Source: a virus (Duplodnaviria; Caudoviricetes). From it: a stretch of 27,960 nucleotides of DNA. The position numbers and the translations under genes are program-made. The notes below the pieces were generated by a model. That model ran no database searches and was not told the origin of the DNA. It saw only the letters and a list, made by a program, of their open reading frames with translations. Of this stretch, positions 5,395-19,795 are shown one piece after another. The stretch is from positions 1-27,960 of IMG/VR virus record IMGVR_UViG_3300013132_000201. One strand, written 5' to 3'. The first letter of the stretch is position 1. Each line of letters begins with the position of its first letter.

Positions 5395-5431
5395 AAAAAG
5401 ATTTAGCCCACCCCTTTCAGAGTGGGCCAAA
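5395..5431 (-). terminator. Intrinsic terminator after the tail tube gene
   Basis: UUUGGCCCACUCU-GAAA-GGGGUGGGCUAAA hairpin followed by UCUUUUU. Confidence 0.85.
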
Positions 5432-5446
5432 CCAATTATTTAATTA

Positions 5447-6142
5447 TTAGACTGCACCTGTGTAAGATACAACTCTGTCAACGATTTTTCCGTAAGAACC
5501 GTTAGAAGCTGGCATTAGACGGAATGTTACCTCAAATGTAGAGGGAGCATCACGTTTTGCTGTAGCTGAAACGTTCTGGATAGATAGAACACGAAGAGCT
5601 GCATATACACGTTGTACTGCACTATTGCCTGTTGCTGCTGGATCACCTGTGCCTGGGCCTACGGCGATTAGAGCTCTTTCTAGTGGAACCTCTCCAAGAT
5701 TGCCAGACTGTACGTTTAGAGCCTGACGAGAAGATGAACCAGTGCCAGTAAGATCTGCTGTAGCACCAGCAATTGCAATAAGTAGGTTGTCTAGAGTACC
5801 CTCTGCGAATCCTGTTACGAGGTTAACCTGCATACCTTGCTTGTACATACGAGCAACGTCTAGTAGCTGATCAACTGCAACCTCACCAAAGTTTGGTTGG
5901 AATTGAACTTCAAGGCCATTCATTGTGTAACCAACGTTTGTCCATGTAGCTGAAGAGCTAGCTAGTGTATCTTCGTATCTTGTATTTCCAACGAATGCTG
6001 GAATACCGCTTGTTGTTTCACCTGAGAATACATATGTGGCAGAAGCTGCTGTACCTGAGTAGTATTCAAGTGGGCCTCCGTTAGCTACAAAGACCTGAGC
6101 TGCACCAACAATAATATTCTTAGCGTCACCTAGTGTTGCCAT
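5447..6142 (-). CDS. Major tail (tube) protein
   Basis: 231 aa; NIIVGAAQVFV, VGYTMNGLE..F.P.FGEV.VDQL and FEVTFRL motifs typical of siphovirus tail tube proteins; followed by its own terminator and the chaperone gene. Confidence 0.88.
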   Translation of the reverse strand: MATLGDAKNIIVGAAQVFVANGGPLEYYSGTAASATYVFSGETTSGIPAFVGNTRYEDTLASSSATWTNVGYTMNGLEVQFQPNFGEVAVDQLLDVARMYKQGMQVNLVTGFAEGTLDNLLIAIAGATADLTGTGSSSRQALNVQSGNLGEVPLERALIAVGPGTGDPAATGNSAVQRVYAALRVLSIQNVSATAKRDAPSTFEVTFRLMPASNGSYGKIVDRVVSYTGAV

Positions 6143-6201
6143 TTACTTTCACCCCTTATTTTTTATAGGATATTTTTGGCGTGGGGCGTTTCCTCATAAT
6201 A

Positions 6202-6207
6202 ATTATA
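6202..6207 (-). promoter_or_regulatory. -10 element (TATAAT) for the tail tube gene; predicted TSS about 6196
   Basis: Consensus TATAAT in the 74-nt gap; SD AAGGGGTG at 6157-6150. Confidence 0.6.
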
Positions 6208-6216
6208 TACGAGTAT

Positions 6217-6717
6217 TTAACCATTATTATACATATTTGATATATGATAATCGTATCGAATAACAAGTTCTGTTGAGAACATTTTGTTTGTTCCACTTTG
6301 TTGACTTGTTGGGCCAATATATTTTAATTGAGTAACATTAATGCATTGAATAAATATATTATCATTGCTTAGTGTTGTACCCGCATATTCATTAATATCA
6401 TTAGCTGCAGCATCTTCTCTATCTAGTACATTCATAATAAAGTCTCGCCATTCAAAAACCTCTGATATTGATCCCTTAATTGAGTACATCATCTGCGTAG
6501 ACTTAACGGGATAAAAATATTTATTAATTGATCTTGGACGAATAAAAGAATCATAAACAATATATGGTTTATTTCCCCATGCAGTATCGCCAGCTTTTAC
6601 ATCAGAGACTGGGAAGAATGGAACAATAGAACTATATTTATTATAAGTAGTTGGTTTTGCTATTTGAAACTGTCTCCATACATATTTATTAATTAGTACC
6701 TCTGAATATTCACTCAT
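6217..6717 (-). CDS. Probable tail terminator protein
   Basis: 166 aa, PYIVY motif, immediately upstream of the tail tube gene (synteny-based). Confidence 0.6.
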   Translation of the reverse strand: MSEYSEVLINKYVWRQFQIAKPTTYNKYSSIVPFFPVSDVKAGDTAWGNKPYIVYDSFIRPRSINKYFYPVKSTQMMYSIKGSISEVFEWRDFIMNVLDREDAAANDINEYAGTTLSNDNIFIQCINVTQLKYIGPTSQQSGTNKMFSTELVIRYDYHISNMYNNG

Positions 6718-7406
6718 TACATTTCACCTACAGGCATGTTCATAACCCATGACAAGGCTGTTTTTCTACCAATTCCTCGTGGATCTGATGACTTTATAGC
6801 AGATGAAAAATTTTGCTCGTATGGTTTTGCATCCATAAAGTATTGATAATATCTTATTGCTCTAAGATAAACTTCTTCAAAATAACGACCATAAAACTCT
6901 TCAAATGCTTTAACAAAGGATCCACGAACTTCTGGTCCACCAGGATTTTCTACAATAATTGGACCTGTTCTAAAATATTCTGTTCCATCAACTTCAAAGA
7001 AAAGTGCCTCTGCTTCTACTTCTTGAATGCTAACAGTTATTCCATCTTCCATAATTCTTGCCTTATCATAAAATACTTGATCAGAAGTATTGGTTGGAGT
7101 TTCAGATTGAAGAAAATCTGCTTCAATAACTGCAGTCTTTTTGCCAAGTGCTCTTTTTAATTGGAATAGTCTTGAGTTAGGATCACCTACTCTACCCCAC
7201 TCATATACATGATGCAACATACCTGGATTTACTCGTGCAAGCTGATCCATATAATCATAAAATTCATCAACGCTAGCTTTAGATAATCTTGCCATAATCA
7301 TTGATTCCTGAGCCTTTGTTTCTGTAATAAATCCATCAGTATATTCCACCAAAGACTTTAACATTTTTTTTGCTTCTCTGCCGTCCATTTTTACTTTATA
7401 CATCAT
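6717..7406 (-). CDS. Probable neck/tail completion protein
   Basis: 229 aa, LHHVYEW...G.P..RLF motif, translationally coupled within the head-tail block (synteny-based). Confidence 0.55.
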   Translation of the reverse strand: MMYKVKMDGREAKKMLKSLVEYTDGFITETKAQESMIMARLSKASVDEFYDYMDQLARVNPGMLHHVYEWGRVGDPNSRLFQLKRALGKKTAVIEADFLQSETPTNTSDQVFYDKARIMEDGITVSIQEVEAEALFFEVDGTEYFRTGPIIVENPGGPEVRGSFVKAFEEFYGRYFEEVYLRAIRYYQYFMDAKPYEQNFSSAIKSSDPRGIGRKTALSWVMNMPVGEM

Positions 7407-7837
7407 ATGTCCTGATTATCCGACCTAATAAGAGCTATTCTATAACCTTCAAGAACGCTAAACATATTAAACATTGGTTCAACATTTCGTATTTCAAATA
7501 CTGTTGATTCATCTGCAGATTCTTTCCAAACCAATTTGCCAGAATTATCTTTAATATCACGAACAAGTATGTCAGTTATTCTGTATGATGATTCGTCTGA
7601 TGATTTAAGAATATCTTCATTTGTACGCATTGTTATAAATAAATCATATTCAATAAATTTTTCTGGATCTAAAGCTACAGCAATTCTAGAGTCTGTATTT
7701 CTTTTAATAGCAGAACATGCAATAGTTCTATCTTTTGACCAAGTTTTTGTTACTTCTCCCATGTCATTTTGTGTTTGAGTGGAATAATAAATATCTGCCG
7801 TCATTGGATAAAAAATTTCATCTAAGCTTTTTAACAT
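7403..7837 (-). CDS. Probable head-closure (stopper) protein
   Basis: 144 aa, beta-rich, Q(N)DMGEV.K.W motif typical of SPP1 gp16-like proteins; follows the adaptor gene. Confidence 0.65.
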   Translation of the reverse strand: MLKSLDEIFYPMTADIYYSTQTQNDMGEVTKTWSKDRTIACSAIKRNTDSRIAVALDPEKFIEYDLFITMRTNEDILKSSDESSYRITDILVRDIKDNSGKLVWKESADESTVFEIRNVEPMFNMFSVLEGYRIALIRSDNQDI

Positions 7838-8703
7838 TAGATCACTCCAGGAATTATTCTGTTCTTATACTTTGATAAAATTTTATCTACAGTAAAATTT
7901 CCTGTTCCCGATGCAAATGAGTTTGCAAACTGTACTTTGAATTCATTATTGTCAAATGATTGAATATATTTTCCAATATACATATTATTTCCAGAGACAA
8001 CATCTGACATTAATGACTCACAAGCAAGTTGAATATCTGCTGGAACTACTCTATACCCAAAGTCTCCATCAATCAGGTAGTCATAATTTACAGCAAAGTT
8101 TGCAGAGAGGTATCTATCCTCCCATACAACTTTATATTCCATTTTATCTTCAAGGCTATCTGATGGAATAATAGATGACTTATCAACACTAATTTTATAA
8201 TCATTAAGATCTGCATCACTAGAATCGTGGATAAGAACTCCATTTTCATACATCTTATAAAGTGTTTGAATTCTTTCATTAATTGGAAGGTAGTCAAGAC
8301 CCATGCCTGTAACTTCTTTATTCTTTCTTATAAAATAAAATTGTCCAGCTTCTGATTCAATAAGGAATCTTGCAGCCTGCTCATATTGTATTGCCTGAGC
8401 TGTTGTAATATTAAGTTTTTCTTTAACTTCAGTAATATTACAGTATGGGCGAACAATATTTATATCTGTTGAATAAACAAGATTTGTTGATTGATATACA
8501 GATGCTTCAAGAACTCCGCTATAAGTAAGATAATAATTATCTAAAGTAAATGTTACTGCTTTTGCAGAGGTAGAAGTTGCAGATGCAGAATATGATGTTC
8601 CTGTAATAAGATCTTCATACTCAATTGTATATAGGGTATTAGCAGAGCTGACATTAAATTTGGCCTGAATACTTGTAGTTTCAGGAAGTCTTAAAATTTC
8701 CAT
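7837..8703 (-). CDS. Probable head-tail adaptor/connector with N-terminal beta extension
   Basis: 288 aa; RPYC...AR..IE, GY..VP.DI..A and TGN..VD.IL..Y motifs of gp6/gp15-type adaptors; downstream of the MCP gene. Confidence 0.7.
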   Translation of the reverse strand: MEILRLPETTSIQAKFNVSSANTLYTIEYEDLITGTSYSASATSTSAKAVTFTLDNYYLTYSGVLEASVYQSTNLVYSTDINIVRPYCNITEVKEKLNITTAQAIQYEQAARFLIESEAGQFYFIRKNKEVTGMGLDYLPINERIQTLYKMYENGVLIHDSSDADLNDYKISVDKSSIIPSDSLEDKMEYKVVWEDRYLSANFAVNYDYLIDGDFGYRVVPADIQLACESLMSDVVSGNNMYIGKYIQSFDNNEFKVQFANSFASGTGNFTVDKILSKYKNRIIPGVI

Positions 8704-8880
8704 TTATACCCCATATGCAGTAGCAACTTCTTGTGGATTAGCAATTCTTACCTTATTGGTAATATGCATCCATGCTTCTGCTTCTTCAATAGTGATGATA
8801 TTATATCCTTGACTTAATCTGCCCAACTTGCTATCAAATAAACCATTTTCAACATGAACAGCAATTCGTGTTGATGACAC
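8704..8880 (-). CDS. Small hypothetical protein (58 aa) missed by the ORF track
   Basis: GGAGG RBS, GTG start, MSSTRIAVHVENGLFDSKLGRLSQGYNIITIEEAEAWMHITNKVRIANPQEVATAYGV*. The stop abuts the next ATG and the ORF fills the gap exactly. Confidence 0.85.
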   Translation of the reverse strand: MSSTRIAVHVENGLFDSKLGRLSQGYNIITIEEAEAWMHITNKVRIANPQEVATAYGV

Positions 8881-8898
8881 AATATCCTCCTGATTTAA

Positions 8899-8907
8899 AT
8901 TATATCA
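8899..8907 (-). promoter_or_regulatory. Extended -10 promoter (TGATATAAT) for the head-tail block
   Basis: Exact TGnTATAAT just downstream of the MCP terminator. Confidence 0.7.
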
Positions 8908-8911
8908 TTAT

Positions 8912-8940
8912 AAAGAAAGAAGGGAGGCTTTCGCCTCCCT
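8912..8940 (-). terminator. Intrinsic terminator after the major capsid gene
   Basis: AGGGAGGC-GAAA-GCCUCCCU followed by UCUUUCUUU. Confidence 0.9.
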
Positions 8941-8960
8941 CCCATCATATTTAGTTATGA

Positions 8961-9959
8961 TCACTTTTCGCCATAAGCTAGAGCGTCTGTTTCTTCGATT
9001 TGTACACCAAAACGAACGAATACTGTATATTCTACTGTATCCTTCTTTGGCTTGAACTCGCGGTGGACTGTAACATCTCTCTGGAATCCCCAAATTCTAT
9101 TTTCTGGGAATGTTAGTGAGACATAATCATCTGGCATGTAAGGAACTTCCATGATGGGTAGTCCGAGAACACGATACTGTAGTGGTGCGCCAACAATCTG
9201 TGGTACTGTTCCATCGACAATTCTTTCTACGATTCTTTCAGAATTGTAGTTTCCTGTCTGAGCAAGGTTGTTTAGTAGGCTGGAGATAGTTGGGCTACCA
9301 GCATAGAACTTCATTGCTGAACGTGAACCACGGTACTTGCGTGGCATTGCTAGGATGATCTGCTGAAGATCCTGTACGGTCCAGTTGCTACCGCTAGAAG
9401 CAACTGAAGTTGCCTCATTACCGCTAGCTTCCTTAGCATAGAATCCTTCCATGATCTTTAGGAAGTTGTTTGTTCCTGATCCAACACCATTGATAGCAAG
9501 ATCCTCTAGGTCGTTAGCAAATGCACGAGTCATTGTACGAACTAGGTGATCCTCTAGTGCAGTACCCTCAAGGTTGTCCTCTAGGGCTTCAGTTGAAACC
9601 TCCCAATCTAGTCTAATCTTCTTTGTTGTGACTTCGACCTTTGTGAAGGCAACTGCTGCATTTGTGTATGTGTCATCAGCTTGGTTAGCTGCACGAATAA
9701 CTCTTTCACCAACATTTAGTTTTTCAAGCTCTGCTGTGTTTGAACGCATTGTTACTCTGCGACCATCCTGTGCGAGAACCTGTTGCTCCCAAATGTATTC
9801 GATGAACTGGCGAGACTGCTCAGGATTGAGAATACCGCCGTCGTCAGTTGTGCTGCCAACTACACCAAGGTCAAAAGCTGCTGGATTAGTGATTGCACCA
9901 ATTCCACCAGAAACTATTGCCCCTGTTGCGGCTGCTTTTTCTAGAATTTCATCTGACAT
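8961..9959 (-). CDS. Major capsid protein (HK97 fold)
   Basis: 332 aa; GGIL.PEQ...FI, EVSTEALEDNLEG, DLEDLAING and VLGLPIMEVP motifs; strong SD AGGAGGTG; follows the protease gene. Confidence 0.93.
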   Translation of the reverse strand: MSDEILEKAAATGAIVSGGIGAITNPAAFDLGVVGSTTDDGGILNPEQSRQFIEYIWEQQVLAQDGRRVTMRSNTAELEKLNVGERVIRAANQADDTYTNAAVAFTKVEVTTKKIRLDWEVSTEALEDNLEGTALEDHLVRTMTRAFANDLEDLAINGVGSGTNNFLKIMEGFYAKEASGNEATSVASSGSNWTVQDLQQIILAMPRKYRGSRSAMKFYAGSPTISSLLNNLAQTGNYNSERIVERIVDGTVPQIVGAPLQYRVLGLPIMEVPYMPDDYVSLTFPENRIWGFQRDVTVHREFKPKKDTVEYTVFVRFGVQIEETDALAYGEK

Positions 9960-9980
9960 TTTTTTTCACCTCCTGGATTA

Positions 9981-11342
9981 TTACCGATATAGGTCAGCGG
10001 AACTGAGGAAACGACCGCCCCACATCGACTTATTTACTCTTTCTTCCTGAACGATCCCGCCAAGATCGCCAGACTTGCGAACAGCGGTGTCGGCTTCGAC
10101 TTCATCAATACGCTGTCCAAACTCACTAATATTGCCCTTAACTTCTGTTACGCTACCTTTTACAACTTCAACTTCGCTTGATACGGAGTCAAGTGACTTC
10201 TTTAGGCTTGCGATTTCCATTGCTAGGGACTTGATTGTTGTAGAAAATTCTCCTAGAACATCTGTAAGAGAAACCTTAATCTCATCAACAGATTTAGCCA
10301 AGTCTTCATCTTTGCTTTCATCTGCAGGAGTGGTGGATTTTTCAATAGCCTCTTCTACAATTTCTTCAGCAGCCTCTTCTGACTTCTCAATGTCATCAGT
10401 GTCAGCTACTTCTTCAACTGCTGGTTCATCAGCAAGTTTTTCAACAACCTCTTCAATAACCTCTGCCTCTTCCACAGCCTCTGACTTTGCAATCTCTTCT
10501 GTTTCTTCGACTTCAGTTATACGTTTGGTTCTTGCCATGCTAATCCCCTCCTTTTCAATATTTTCAGCAATTGACTTGGCTACTTCGTCAATCGCTTCTT
10601 CATTATCAGATTGTTCATCTGAACTCTTTGTCATGTTATTAATAAGCTCCATTACAACATCAGACTTGTTTACATCATTGCTTTCAACAAATCCAATGTT
10701 TGTCATCGTCTTATTGCATTGTGGACATGAATATTGATTTGATGTGCTTAGGATCACCATATCGTTAGATCCACACCAGTAAACATTTTCTAGGTAATTT
10801 TTTTCAAATACCTCTGCATTATCAGCAAGCTTTTGAATAGAAACAAAGTTTGCATTTGGATTAGCTGGATTGTCAACAAGTGATAGCTCATCAAGTTCGT
10901 ACTCTTTAATAAGTCTAACGGGACCATCAGATGACTTTGTATACATATCTTCTGAGTCCTTAATTCTTCCACCAATAGAAAAGCCTGAGAGGATTCCCTC
11001 TGTTACCTTGTGCCAGGTATCTTGTGCTCCCTTTGATACGTATACATCAACAAAAATTCCATTATGAGATTCACCAGTTGCCTTGTCAAAATATTTATCT
11101 TGTTTAAAGGAAACCATTTTGCCAACAGCAAGTGGGGTATGTTGTTCACGAATATTCCCACGGAATCTTTTGAAAGCCTCAACAGATGCATCAATAGCTA
11201 CTACATCACCCTGCTTGTCAAGGGTATCAAGTGTGGCCCATCCAGATACAATTCTTTTTTCCTTATCAATTTTCTGAATTGGCATTGACAGTCGTATGCT
11301 GTCTCCATCTGTAGCCCAAAAAGCTTTTGATAAAATACTCAT
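9981..11342 (-). CDS. Prohead maturation protease (HK97-type) fused to a Cys-rich knuckle and an acidic scaffold/coiled-coil
   Basis: D.QGD, IREQH, GFSIGG and ELSLVDNPANP motifs; WC...CPQC segment; Glu-rich C-terminal half. Confidence 0.92.
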   Translation of the reverse strand: MSILSKAFWATDGDSIRLSMPIQKIDKEKRIVSGWATLDTLDKQGDVVAIDASVEAFKRFRGNIREQHTPLAVGKMVSFKQDKYFDKATGESHNGIFVDVYVSKGAQDTWHKVTEGILSGFSIGGRIKDSEDMYTKSSDGPVRLIKEYELDELSLVDNPANPNANFVSIQKLADNAEVFEKNYLENVYWCGSNDMVILSTSNQYSCPQCNKTMTNIGFVESNDVNKSDVVMELINNMTKSSDEQSDNEEAIDEVAKSIAENIEKEGISMARTKRITEVEETEEIAKSEAVEEAEVIEEVVEKLADEPAVEEVADTDDIEKSEEAAEEIVEEAIEKSTTPADESKDEDLAKSVDEIKVSLTDVLGEFSTTIKSLAMEIASLKKSLDSVSSEVEVVKGSVTEVKGNISEFGQRIDEVEADTAVRKSGDLGGIVQEERVNKSMWGGRFLSSADLYR

Positions 11343-19202: not shown

Positions 19203-19234
19203 AGACGAATGTCTTGCCGCCGCAAGGAGGAATA

Positions 19235-19795
19235 ATGACGAAAATAAAACTGCTAGGAGGTGTGTTAGTAATGGCAATGGTTATTACAGGATCTACCGTT
19301 GCCCTTGCACAAACACGCACCGAACAGGTGTATGCTAAGTCTGCACCTACTGCGACGGAGATGCCGCTTCCCGACAAATCCGTTATTGTAAAAAGATCTG
19401 CTGGGAAAGCGGTATCTGAGGATATGCCAGCTCAATGTGATAATTGGCTCGTAAAAGTTCTTAGAAATGCTGGTTTCCGTGGCGACAACCTGAGACAGGC
19501 ATGGGCAATTGTTATGCGTGAATCAGGGGGAAGAGAAGATGCTATATCTGCTACAGGAGATTATGGCATGTTTCAATTTAATAAAGTAGCATGGGGAGGA
19601 AAGGATTGGTGGGATACCAAACTTCTTCTTACCCGTGACTATAATGCTTCCATTGCTTTTATGATTAGTGATGGTGGCAGAACTTGGTATCCCTGGGATA
19701 TCGATGGTAAAGGAAATCACAAAGGTAACTATACATCTACGGGTGTTTATAATAAGTATCTTAAATGGTACAACGATTATCCTTGCGTAGTTTAA
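19235..19795 (+). CDS. Secreted lysozyme-fold lytic transglycosylase (SLT/Rpf-like), 186 aa
   Basis: AGGAGG RBS then MTKIKLLGG...ALA|Q signal peptide; catalytic AIVMRESGG and GDYGMFQFN motifs; W.PW near the C-terminus. Confidence 0.85.
   Translation: MTKIKLLGGVLVMAMVITGSTVALAQTRTEQVYAKSAPTATEMPLPDKSVIVKRSAGKAVSEDMPAQCDNWLVKVLRNAGFRGDNLRQAWAIVMRESGGREDAISATGDYGMFQFNKVAWGGKDWWDTKLLLTRDYNASIAFMISDGGRTWYPWDIDGKGNHKGNYTSTGVYNKYLKWYNDYPCVV

Follow-up and report, generated by a model that had tools for sequence, protein, structure and literature searches.

To our knowledge, few functional mRNA-mRNA pairs are known in bacteria. In tailed phages, whose heads and tails are built in separate assembly pathways, the matching of head and tail numbers is an old question, for which we know of little mechanism beyond promoter and ribosome-site strength. 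RNA-OUT of IS10 is a non-coding antisense RNA made from the opposite strand of the same DNA, and it represses translation. In a toehold riboregulator the 5' end is left unpaired as a toehold, and the sequence after it masks the ribosome site until a trigger RNA displaces it. Docking in the IS10 RNA-IN/RNA-OUT pair is described as starting with about the first seven mRNA bases, which contact the hairpin loop of the partner before pairing extends, and synthetic crRNA/taRNA riboregulators are described in the same source (PMC4737173). Among mRNA pairs, the hly mRNA of Listeria is reported to bind the extreme 5' end of prsA2 and to block RNase J1 (PMC8722363), and the Streptococcus mutans irvA-gbpC pair, in which the 5' UTR of one mRNA pairs in trans with the coding region of another, is cited there. 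On the phage side, lambda-lambda chimeras between coding sequences on Hfq are reported as phage mRNA-mRNA contacts detected during infection (10.1101/2024.10.31.621285). Neither a head-tail mRNA pair nor any other functional mRNA pair between phage structural genes was found in our literature search, which covered few subscription papers.

The window is the whole 27,960-nt stretch of phage DNA that was analysed. Its head and tail-tube genes are read from the minus strand, with the following features:

5400..5433, minus strand: intrinsic-terminator-like hairpin at the end of the tail-tube transcript
5447..6142, minus strand: major tail (tube) protein gene, 231 aa (phrog_2175; homologue annotation and gene order)
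6150..6155, minus strand: tail-tube Shine-Dalgarno (SD) site, which leader bases 6188-6183 are predicted to cover
6181..6195, minus strand: predicted tail-tube mRNA 5' end, +1 predicted from spacing
6202..6207, minus strand: -10-like hexamer TATAAT of the tail-tube promoter
8918..8943, minus strand: intrinsic-terminator-like hairpin 3' of the capsid gene, between the head and tail transcripts
8961..9959, minus strand: major capsid protein gene, 332 aa (PF05065, phrog_1623, phrog_10)
9966..9974, minus strand: capsid SD site, which the target is not predicted to cover
9981..10538, minus strand: in-frame ORF (185 aa) nested in the protease gene and served by a strong SD of its own, likely a scaffolding protein
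9981..11342, minus strand: head maturation protease gene (phrog_9427, PF04586), near-leaderless
9984..10028, minus strand: hairpin predicted within the final codons of the protease/scaffold frame, whose 14-nt loop (10014-10001) holds the seed target
10005..10023, minus strand: target of the tail-tube 5' end, with a 9-nt seed match (10013-10005), a 4-nt bulge and a second helix of 6 nt (10023-10018)

The tail-tube protein is 37-40% identical to annotated major tail proteins of Streptomyces phages, and its gene precedes chaperone-sized genes and the tape measure gene; it is from this homologue annotation and gene order that the protein is identified. The capsid is about 40% identical to Stanwilliamsviridae capsids, and the protease gene has a TATAAT (11357-11352) 9 nt upstream of its start codon. 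At the gathering score, Rfam gave no match over the whole window, the one sub-threshold hit (E 0.38) being a chance match.

The original prediction had the tail-tube mRNA 5' end pairing with the protease 3' end as 10 bp, a 4-nt bulge and 6 bp. The strings it quoted are all in place (TATAAT 6207-6202, leader 6196-6181, tail SD 6155-6150, target 10023-10004, capsid SD 9974-9969), as is the terminator-like hairpin (8943-8918), and the layout holds, but the first helix is 9 bp long because the predicted +1 is G6195. The supposed tenth pair, 6196/10004, sits at column -1, which is paired in 100/142 loci across relatives, against about 97 expected, that is, at chance level. For the first 18 nt of the leader, the target is the best of 2,793 coding-strand windows in the 28 kb (-27.3 vs -24.3 kcal/mol for the next), and on the plus strand the leader's own antisense alone outscores it. 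This margin is modest in a single genome, and the comparative evidence is the strong part. The two sites lie 3.8 kb apart on the same strand, and their duplex is bulged.

When distinct loci of related phages were scanned blind, 147 of 147 showed the same complementarity; its presence in relatives, which the original prediction had singled out as a check, is borne out. The observed pairing beats four controls in 140/147, 134/137, 146/146 and 147/147 loci, and both controls in 25 of 26 held-out loci; in the single miss the site lies just beyond the scanned range. At the level of sequence the head-tail complementarity is confirmed, far more strongly than the single-genome view allowed. Columns +1 to +8 are paired in 128-142 of 142 loci, while columns -6 to -1 stay near chance, and a TAnnnT box is present in 137/142, lying 6-7 nt upstream of the first paired base in 96 of these 137. 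Cultured Streptomyces phages (Stanwilliamsviridae) have the pairing, and in the Rhodococcus phages Trina and Francesca it persists although the letters differ, with the seed 3' of the stop codon. The outgroups Peregrin and Weasels2 (related head genes, another tail module) and Zuko have no leader-to-target pair. Duplexes are short, usually interrupted by a bulge after 8-10 bp, and insertions and deletions alter the gap that separates their two helices. The seed ends 42-81 nt upstream of the capsid start across representatives (about 110 nt in locus L324, where the site stays with the protease C-terminal codons), and the predicted +1 lies 39-93 nt upstream of the tail start.

The paired letters change together. 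Computed without circular anchoring over 114 loci, column +7 is paired in 109 (0.73 expected) and column +8 in 96 (0.66 expected), and 11 of the 13 changes at column +7 are two-sided on the capsid tree, as a covariation check proposed with the original prediction would have it. Constraint at synonymous sites, also proposed there, is seen at both paired codons: the Phe codon is TTC in 41/45 (36% elsewhere) and the Leu codon CTC in 38/43 (8% elsewhere). All four codons are in use at the unpaired Gly, and the seed lies 3' of the stop codon in 3/54 representatives; the pairing is thus not driven by the protein. These comparisons support selection for RNA-RNA pairing of the tail-tube 5' end with the protease 3' end. 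It is exceedingly improbable that the sites form instead a DNA inverted repeat, serving as two sites for one protein or as recombination sites. Although a change in protein specificity could yield two-sided changes, and the G.U versus A.C counts (7 to 5) do not tell RNA from DNA, the variable helix spacing, the wholly replaced letters in Trina, Francesca and loci L238 and L291, the lack of a third full copy of the paired sequence in the window, and the lack of any inverted arrangement among 292 and 90 loci all stand against it, as does the antisense side, where the protease end has no -10 box at the right spacing.

The original prediction also held that pairing would occur mostly in trans, and this is most likely the case, with a terminator-like element predicted 3' of the capsid gene in 49/55 representatives; another follows the tail-tube gene in 50/51. 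Since the two sites share a strand at 3.0-7.6 kb from each other, and the post-capsid hairpin is without a good U run in 6/55, they could in principle pair in cis as a long-range structure of a protease-to-tail-tube read-through transcript. This is very unlikely given the 49 terminator-like elements, the more than twofold variation in spacing, and a -10 box positioned for pairing to begin at +1.

On the head side, the target hairpin of the window folds at -16.9 kcal/mol (z -1.77; 13/200 shuffles equally good), and its loop bases are predicted to be 0.70-0.81 unpaired over 54 representatives. The named 16-pair stem is 61.3% paired vs 60.3% when shuffled (68/500 shuffles), slid registers reaching 33-44%, and for cells with a two-sided change the same stem gives 3/500 shuffles. 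Consensus folding of 48 sequences yields no real structure because the stem registers slide. The internal SD and start of the nested ORF are at the same alignment position in 42/46 representatives, and its Pfam matches are weak and of coiled-coil type only; it probably encodes the scaffold. The target falls within the last 14 codons of this ORF, inside a frame having a strong SD in 51/54 representatives, and frequent stripping of the duplex by ribosomes is therefore expected. Two features of the target had been overlooked in the original prediction: its place in the loop of a predicted hairpin, and its overlap with the final codons of a nested frame that probably encodes the scaffold. Three further candidates were rejected: a TTGACA-type site (11089-11061) as promoter is not conserved, pairing between the capsid start codon and the hairpin 3' strand can be seen by eye in two clades and fails in others, and read-through of the stop into the capsid gene would meet more in-frame stops. 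No internal capsid promoter is conserved in the protease 3' half among 46 representatives.

The target was originally read as an anti-SD for the capsid gene, so that the duplex would free both ribosome sites. The capsid half of this reading is not supported: the target is predicted to fold locally, as a hairpin of its own, instead of pairing with the capsid SD, and upon binding the capsid site is predicted to open in 1/55 representatives, close in 12/55 and stay unchanged in 42/55. In a 142-locus calculation it is more closed in 46 and opened in 4. The loop letters, moreover, track the tail leader and not the capsid SD, which leaves a symmetric release of both sites extremely unlikely, even though its tail side coincides with the explanation that we prefer and a loop-to-SD pseudoknot on the head side would be beyond what folding programs model. 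The closings would suit an action of the tail-tube 5' end on the head mRNA like that of a small RNA, opening the hairpin so that the released strand, or cleavage, lowers capsid or scaffold synthesis. Such tail-to-head feedback would account for a seed end kept 42-81 nt upstream of the capsid start, and loop invasion likewise needs a free 5' end, but with the capsid site mostly unchanged, and with the L324 site remaining at the protease codons far from the capsid start, we consider it unlikely.

On the tail side, bases +1 to +7 of the leader in the window are predicted to form an unpaired seed, and the segment after them has a dual use, since it can pair with either its own SD or the head mRNA. 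The SD covered by the leader is found in both the minimum-energy and the centroid fold (pairing probability 0.84), and the native leader is more closed than shuffles in 35/55 representatives. When the head mRNA binds, the tail ribosome site is predicted to open in 31/55, to stay unchanged in 18/55 and to close in 6/55. The tail anti-SD proposed in the original prediction is thus partly supported, by the fold and the predicted opening, but its covariation is weak and the six closings run the other way. The leader pairs about equally with the capsid SD and its own (-6.62 vs -6.76); the anti-SD is perhaps a by-product, because a leader that pairs the G-rich Trp-Gly codons also complements a G-rich SD. 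The site is predicted to close in Tomas, one of the six, and likewise in NootNoot. In these two phages and in Wofford, a U-rich segment is available for pairing with the 5' end, and once released it would cover the SD. The head mRNA might then lower tail-tube output, through a freed internal anti-SD or an RNase III substrate, and hold tails back while it is abundant, much as IS10 RNA-OUT represses with the same loop-to-5'-end geometry (PMC4737173). With so few closings, and duplexes this short and bulged, repression of this kind is quite improbable.

The matching two-sided changes make it likely that the head message binds the tail message. We put at about an even chance the fuller proposal, drawn from sequence comparison, that the separately made head and tail mRNAs pair in trans and that the head mRNA raises tail-tube output. 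The free 5' seed (+1 to +8) would dock onto the exposed hairpin loop, and pairing would then spread into the 5' strand of the hairpin. The clamped 5' end would be shielded from pyrophosphatase and from 5'-dependent RNase J/E attack, the sole consequence open to all members, and in just over half of them invasion would also detach the leader from the ribosome site that it covers. Output of the most abundant tail protein would then keep pace with the head mRNA. Most leaders are predicted to begin with GA, and mycobacterial RppH is described as most active on unstructured 5' ends starting with GA, with mixed effects on decay in vivo (PMC12988327). These mixed effects and the variable ribosome-site outcome count against the explanation, as do the expected stripping of the duplex by ribosomes, an anti-SD that could be a by-product, and a hairpin stem whose covariation does not exceed that of shuffles. 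A duplex acting as a tether, which brings synthesis of head and tail proteins together in one place and changes their amounts little, would explain universal pairing despite ribosome-site effects of varying sign, but it leaves the start of pairing at the predicted +1 unexplained and siphophage heads and tails are generally known to assemble independently, which makes it very improbable.

In a broader view, to which we hold only tentatively, direct contact between mRNAs is how this whole family of actinobacterial siphophages keeps heads and tails, which assemble separately, in balance. The head mRNA would be both a toehold-switch trigger and a 5'-end shield for the tail-tube mRNA, and ribosome traffic over the scaffold frame would gate the contact, so that tail output would follow the progress of head assembly with no regulatory protein or small RNA involved. 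The pairing would represent a specific RNA contact, kept throughout the family, that joins the two structural mRNAs of highest abundance, and its covariation is unusually deep. Direct tests are possible, since the pairing occurs in cultured Streptomyces and Rhodococcus phages and synonymous and leader mutations can disrupt the seed and then restore it.

Compared with these phage mRNAs, the lambda chimeras are uncharacterised and in bulk, with no head-tail pair among them as the main text presents them, where the word "capsid" occurs 0 times (10.1101/2024.10.31.621285). In IS10 as described in PMC4737173 an mRNA 5' end docks on a partner's hairpin loop, as is proposed for the phage pair. The phage partners, however, are imperfectly complementary mRNAs read from one strand at loci that lie kilobases from each other, not fully complementary products of opposite strands. 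Nor does the phage duplex lie over a ribosome site, the seed end being 42-81 nt from the capsid start and +1 39-93 nt from the tail start. The predicted tail leader of the window resembles crRNA/taRNA and toehold designs, with an unpaired 5' seed followed by an SD-covering segment, but the system is natural, a translated mRNA would serve as its trigger, and ribosome-site opening is predicted in only about half of members. As cited in PMC8722363, irvA-gbpC pairs a 5' UTR with a coding region in trans, as is proposed for the phages; there the 5' UTR protects its coding-region partner from RNase J2, in a bacterium and not a phage, which matches tail-to-head feedback in direction but not in sign. 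In hly-prsA2 as reported in the same paper, the partner is a 3' UTR, the setting is a virulence regulon of a bacterium, and RNase J1 was measured to be held off; in the phages, the partner is coding sequence in the head operon (51/54) and the pairing covaries across a phage family. Conserved complementarity between two mRNAs is found in the phages as in hly-prsA2, and the proposed clamp of the head mRNA on the tail-tube 5' end would, like hly on prsA2, shield its partner against decay.

The minus strand of the window carries a phage virion module, as judged from gene calls and family searches, laid out as follows.

12944-11391, minus strand: portal
11342-9981, minus strand: protease
9959-8961, minus strand: major capsid
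between capsid and tail tube, minus strand: neck genes
6142-5447, minus strand: tail tube, whose homolog in cultured relatives is annotated as major tail protein
beyond the tail tube, minus strand: chaperone-sized genes, then the tape measure

Among cultured phages, the nearest are Rhodococcus phages and the Stanwilliamsviridae of Streptomyces, whose capsid protein shares about 40% identity, and the host is thus presumably actinobacterial. Family searches recognised no terminase gene within the window. Near the head module lies a class II (B12-dependent) ribonucleotide reductase (18738-16789, minus strand), and upstream of the portal module a 1151-aa ORF (16752-13297, minus strand) in a low-GC stretch (25-30%), with no family in PHROG or Pfam. 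The protease gene is near-leaderless, as in many relatives, with a -10-like box 6-9 nt ahead of its start codon (11357-11342, minus strand). Directly past the capsid terminator, a 58-aa ORF (8880-8704, minus strand; no Pfam match) has a GTG start, a strong Shine-Dalgarno (SD) site and its own -10-like box (8904-8899). Two small ORFs (5352-4685, minus strand) separate tail tube from tape measure; the annotation of Yaboi and Francesca gives their counterparts as one joined tail assembly chaperone. Among the genes scanned, the sole plus-strand gene with a family assignment encodes a lysozyme-like SLT protein (19214-19795).

The original prediction paired the leader of the tail-tube mRNA with a target near the protease 3' end (10023-10004, minus strand), and every string it quoted is present where it was placed. 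Spacing from TATAAT at 6207-6202 puts the predicted first base (+1) at G6195, so that the duplex has a first helix of 9 bp and a second of 6 bp on either side of a 4-nt bulge; bulge and second helix stand as proposed, and the first helix is one pair shorter than the 10 bp claimed. Of 2,793 coding-strand windows, the target is the one that pairs best with the leader's first 18 nt (-27.3 kcal/mol, against -24.3 for the next, at 20920-20891 on the minus strand, near a glycosyltransferase gene start). The same ranking in eight other loci places the target first in seven and third in one (L291).

Complementarity was expected in related phages, and it is found there. The 292 sequences compared (291 loci and the window) include 201 with both genes, never in inverted arrangement, and yield 147 distinct pairs. 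Blind scanning, which matched 95 nt ahead of the tail SD to 85 nt ahead of the capsid SD, returned the same two sites in all 147, as judged by eye, with L258 a few bases off. Mean pairing energy is -23.8, compared with -12.8 to -16.6 in four controls, which the observed energy surpasses in 140/147, 134/137, 146/146 and 147/147 pairs. A held-out set of 90 later-fetched loci, 31 of them with both genes, gave 26 new distinct pairs, 25 of which are ahead of both controls. The exception, L324, has a weak 12-bp match (-15.4, four G.U pairs) about 110 nt upstream of the capsid start, beyond the scanned range. No comparable pair was found in Peregrin, Weasels2 and Zuko, which carry other tail modules. 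The pairing persists, with most of its letters changed, in the Rhodococcus phages Trina and Francesca and in loci L238 and L291.

The predicted covariation of the leader with the protease 3' codons is also seen. Once five pairs in which the register rule failed (L003, L014, L144, L182 and L247) are dropped, pairing in columns +1 through +8 occurs in 128-142 of 142, and in columns -6 through -1 it is close to chance. Since this register was partly chosen by pairing, the count was repeated on the 114 of 147 pairs that could be anchored solely on shared hexamers: +7 is paired in 109 (0.73 expected) and +8 in 96 (0.66 expected), with +9 and +10 at chance. By parsimony on a FastTree capsid tree, 11 of the 13 changes at +7 are two-sided and one is a wobble; the 26 at +8 include 8 two-sided, 5 wobble and 9 breaks. 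When partners were swapped among 24 representatives with distinct targets (six loci with offset registers excluded), cognate pairs averaged -20.9 and swapped pairs -12.7, and none of 100,000 permutations was as good, a figure that overstates significance because relatives are not independent; counting changes on the tree gives the fairer estimate. The sole feature common to all members is an 8-bp helix starting at the predicted first base. A selected RNA-RNA pairing between leader and target very probably exists.

Synonymous constraint at the protease 3' end, likewise anticipated, appears in 46 representatives: the target's Phe codon is TTC in 41/45 (36% elsewhere in the gene) and its Leu codon CTC in 38/43 (8% elsewhere), and the Gly codon inside the bulge uses all four codons. 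In 3/54 the seed lies past the protease stop codon (Trina, Francesca and L291; L124:4200-4215, L126 and L291). Judged by this codon bias and these displaced seeds, conservation of the target is not a protein effect. In the window the target is predicted to fold as a hairpin (10028-9984, minus strand) whose 14-nt loop contains the seed match, although 13/200 shuffles fold equally well. Across relatives, a 16-pair stem is paired about as often as in shuffled controls (61.3% against 60.3%; 68 of 500 shuffles as good). Across 54 representatives, the bases facing +1 to +4 are predicted to be 0.70-0.81 unpaired between paired flanks, and codons of the hairpin's 3' strand are biased (Asp GAC 22/27, Leu CTA 28/35).

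A strong internal SD with an in-frame start occurs at one shared position in 42/46 proteases (10538 in the window), so that the target occupies the last codons of a nested frame (10538-9981, minus strand), probably the scaffolding-protein gene, which lacks annotation in the cultured phage records examined. No conserved internal promoter was found in the 3' half of the protease gene in 46 representatives. Terminator-like elements follow the capsid gene in 49/55 and the tail-tube gene in 50/51, which points to two separate mRNAs for head and tail.

The duplex had been proposed to free both ribosome sites. Predicted opening costs in 55 representatives below 85% capsid identity (threshold >1 kcal/mol) bear this out for the tail site in about half of the family (31 easier, 18 unchanged, 6 harder upon binding) and speak against it for the capsid site (1, 42 and 12). 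Over all 142 pairs the corresponding predictions are 88/42/12 and 4/92/46, and in the window the cost goes from 11.0 to 9.0 for the tail and from 5.0 to 5.7 for the capsid. The native leader is predicted to close its own site more than shuffles do in 35/55. Its anti-SD segment, which matches its own SD and the capsid SD about equally and shows weak covariation, may therefore be partly a by-product. The opposite switch direction is predicted for Tomas and NootNoot. In three Streptomyces phages (L115, L116 and L122) a U-rich segment immediately ahead of the SD can pair with the start of the leader, so that head mRNA binding, unlike in most relatives, is predicted to close the tail site.

Beyond complementarity, every step is one that we infer. 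The free 5' end of tail mRNA would be needed to invade the target loop, and once paired would resist 5'-dependent decay. IS10 requires a free end for loop invasion (PMC4737173), which fits a helix beginning at the leader's predicted first base, and prsA2 bound by hly has its paired end protected from 5'-dependent decay (PMC8722363), which fits the leader's paired 5' end. Mycobacterial RppH is reported to be most active on unstructured ends starting GA, with mixed effects of its loss in vivo (PMC12988327). We put at about even the chance that head mRNA raises tail-tube output by such shielding, often also by ribosome-site opening.

No Rfam family matches the window at its gathering score, the one weaker match (E 0.38) being attributable to chance, and no phage head-tail mRNA pair was found in the literature searched, mostly papers outside subscription together with main-text passages of two phage RIL-seq preprints. 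Since control of one mRNA by another in trans is already known from a few bacterial cases, the phage pairing would extend a known type of control, as a new instance of it rather than a new principle.
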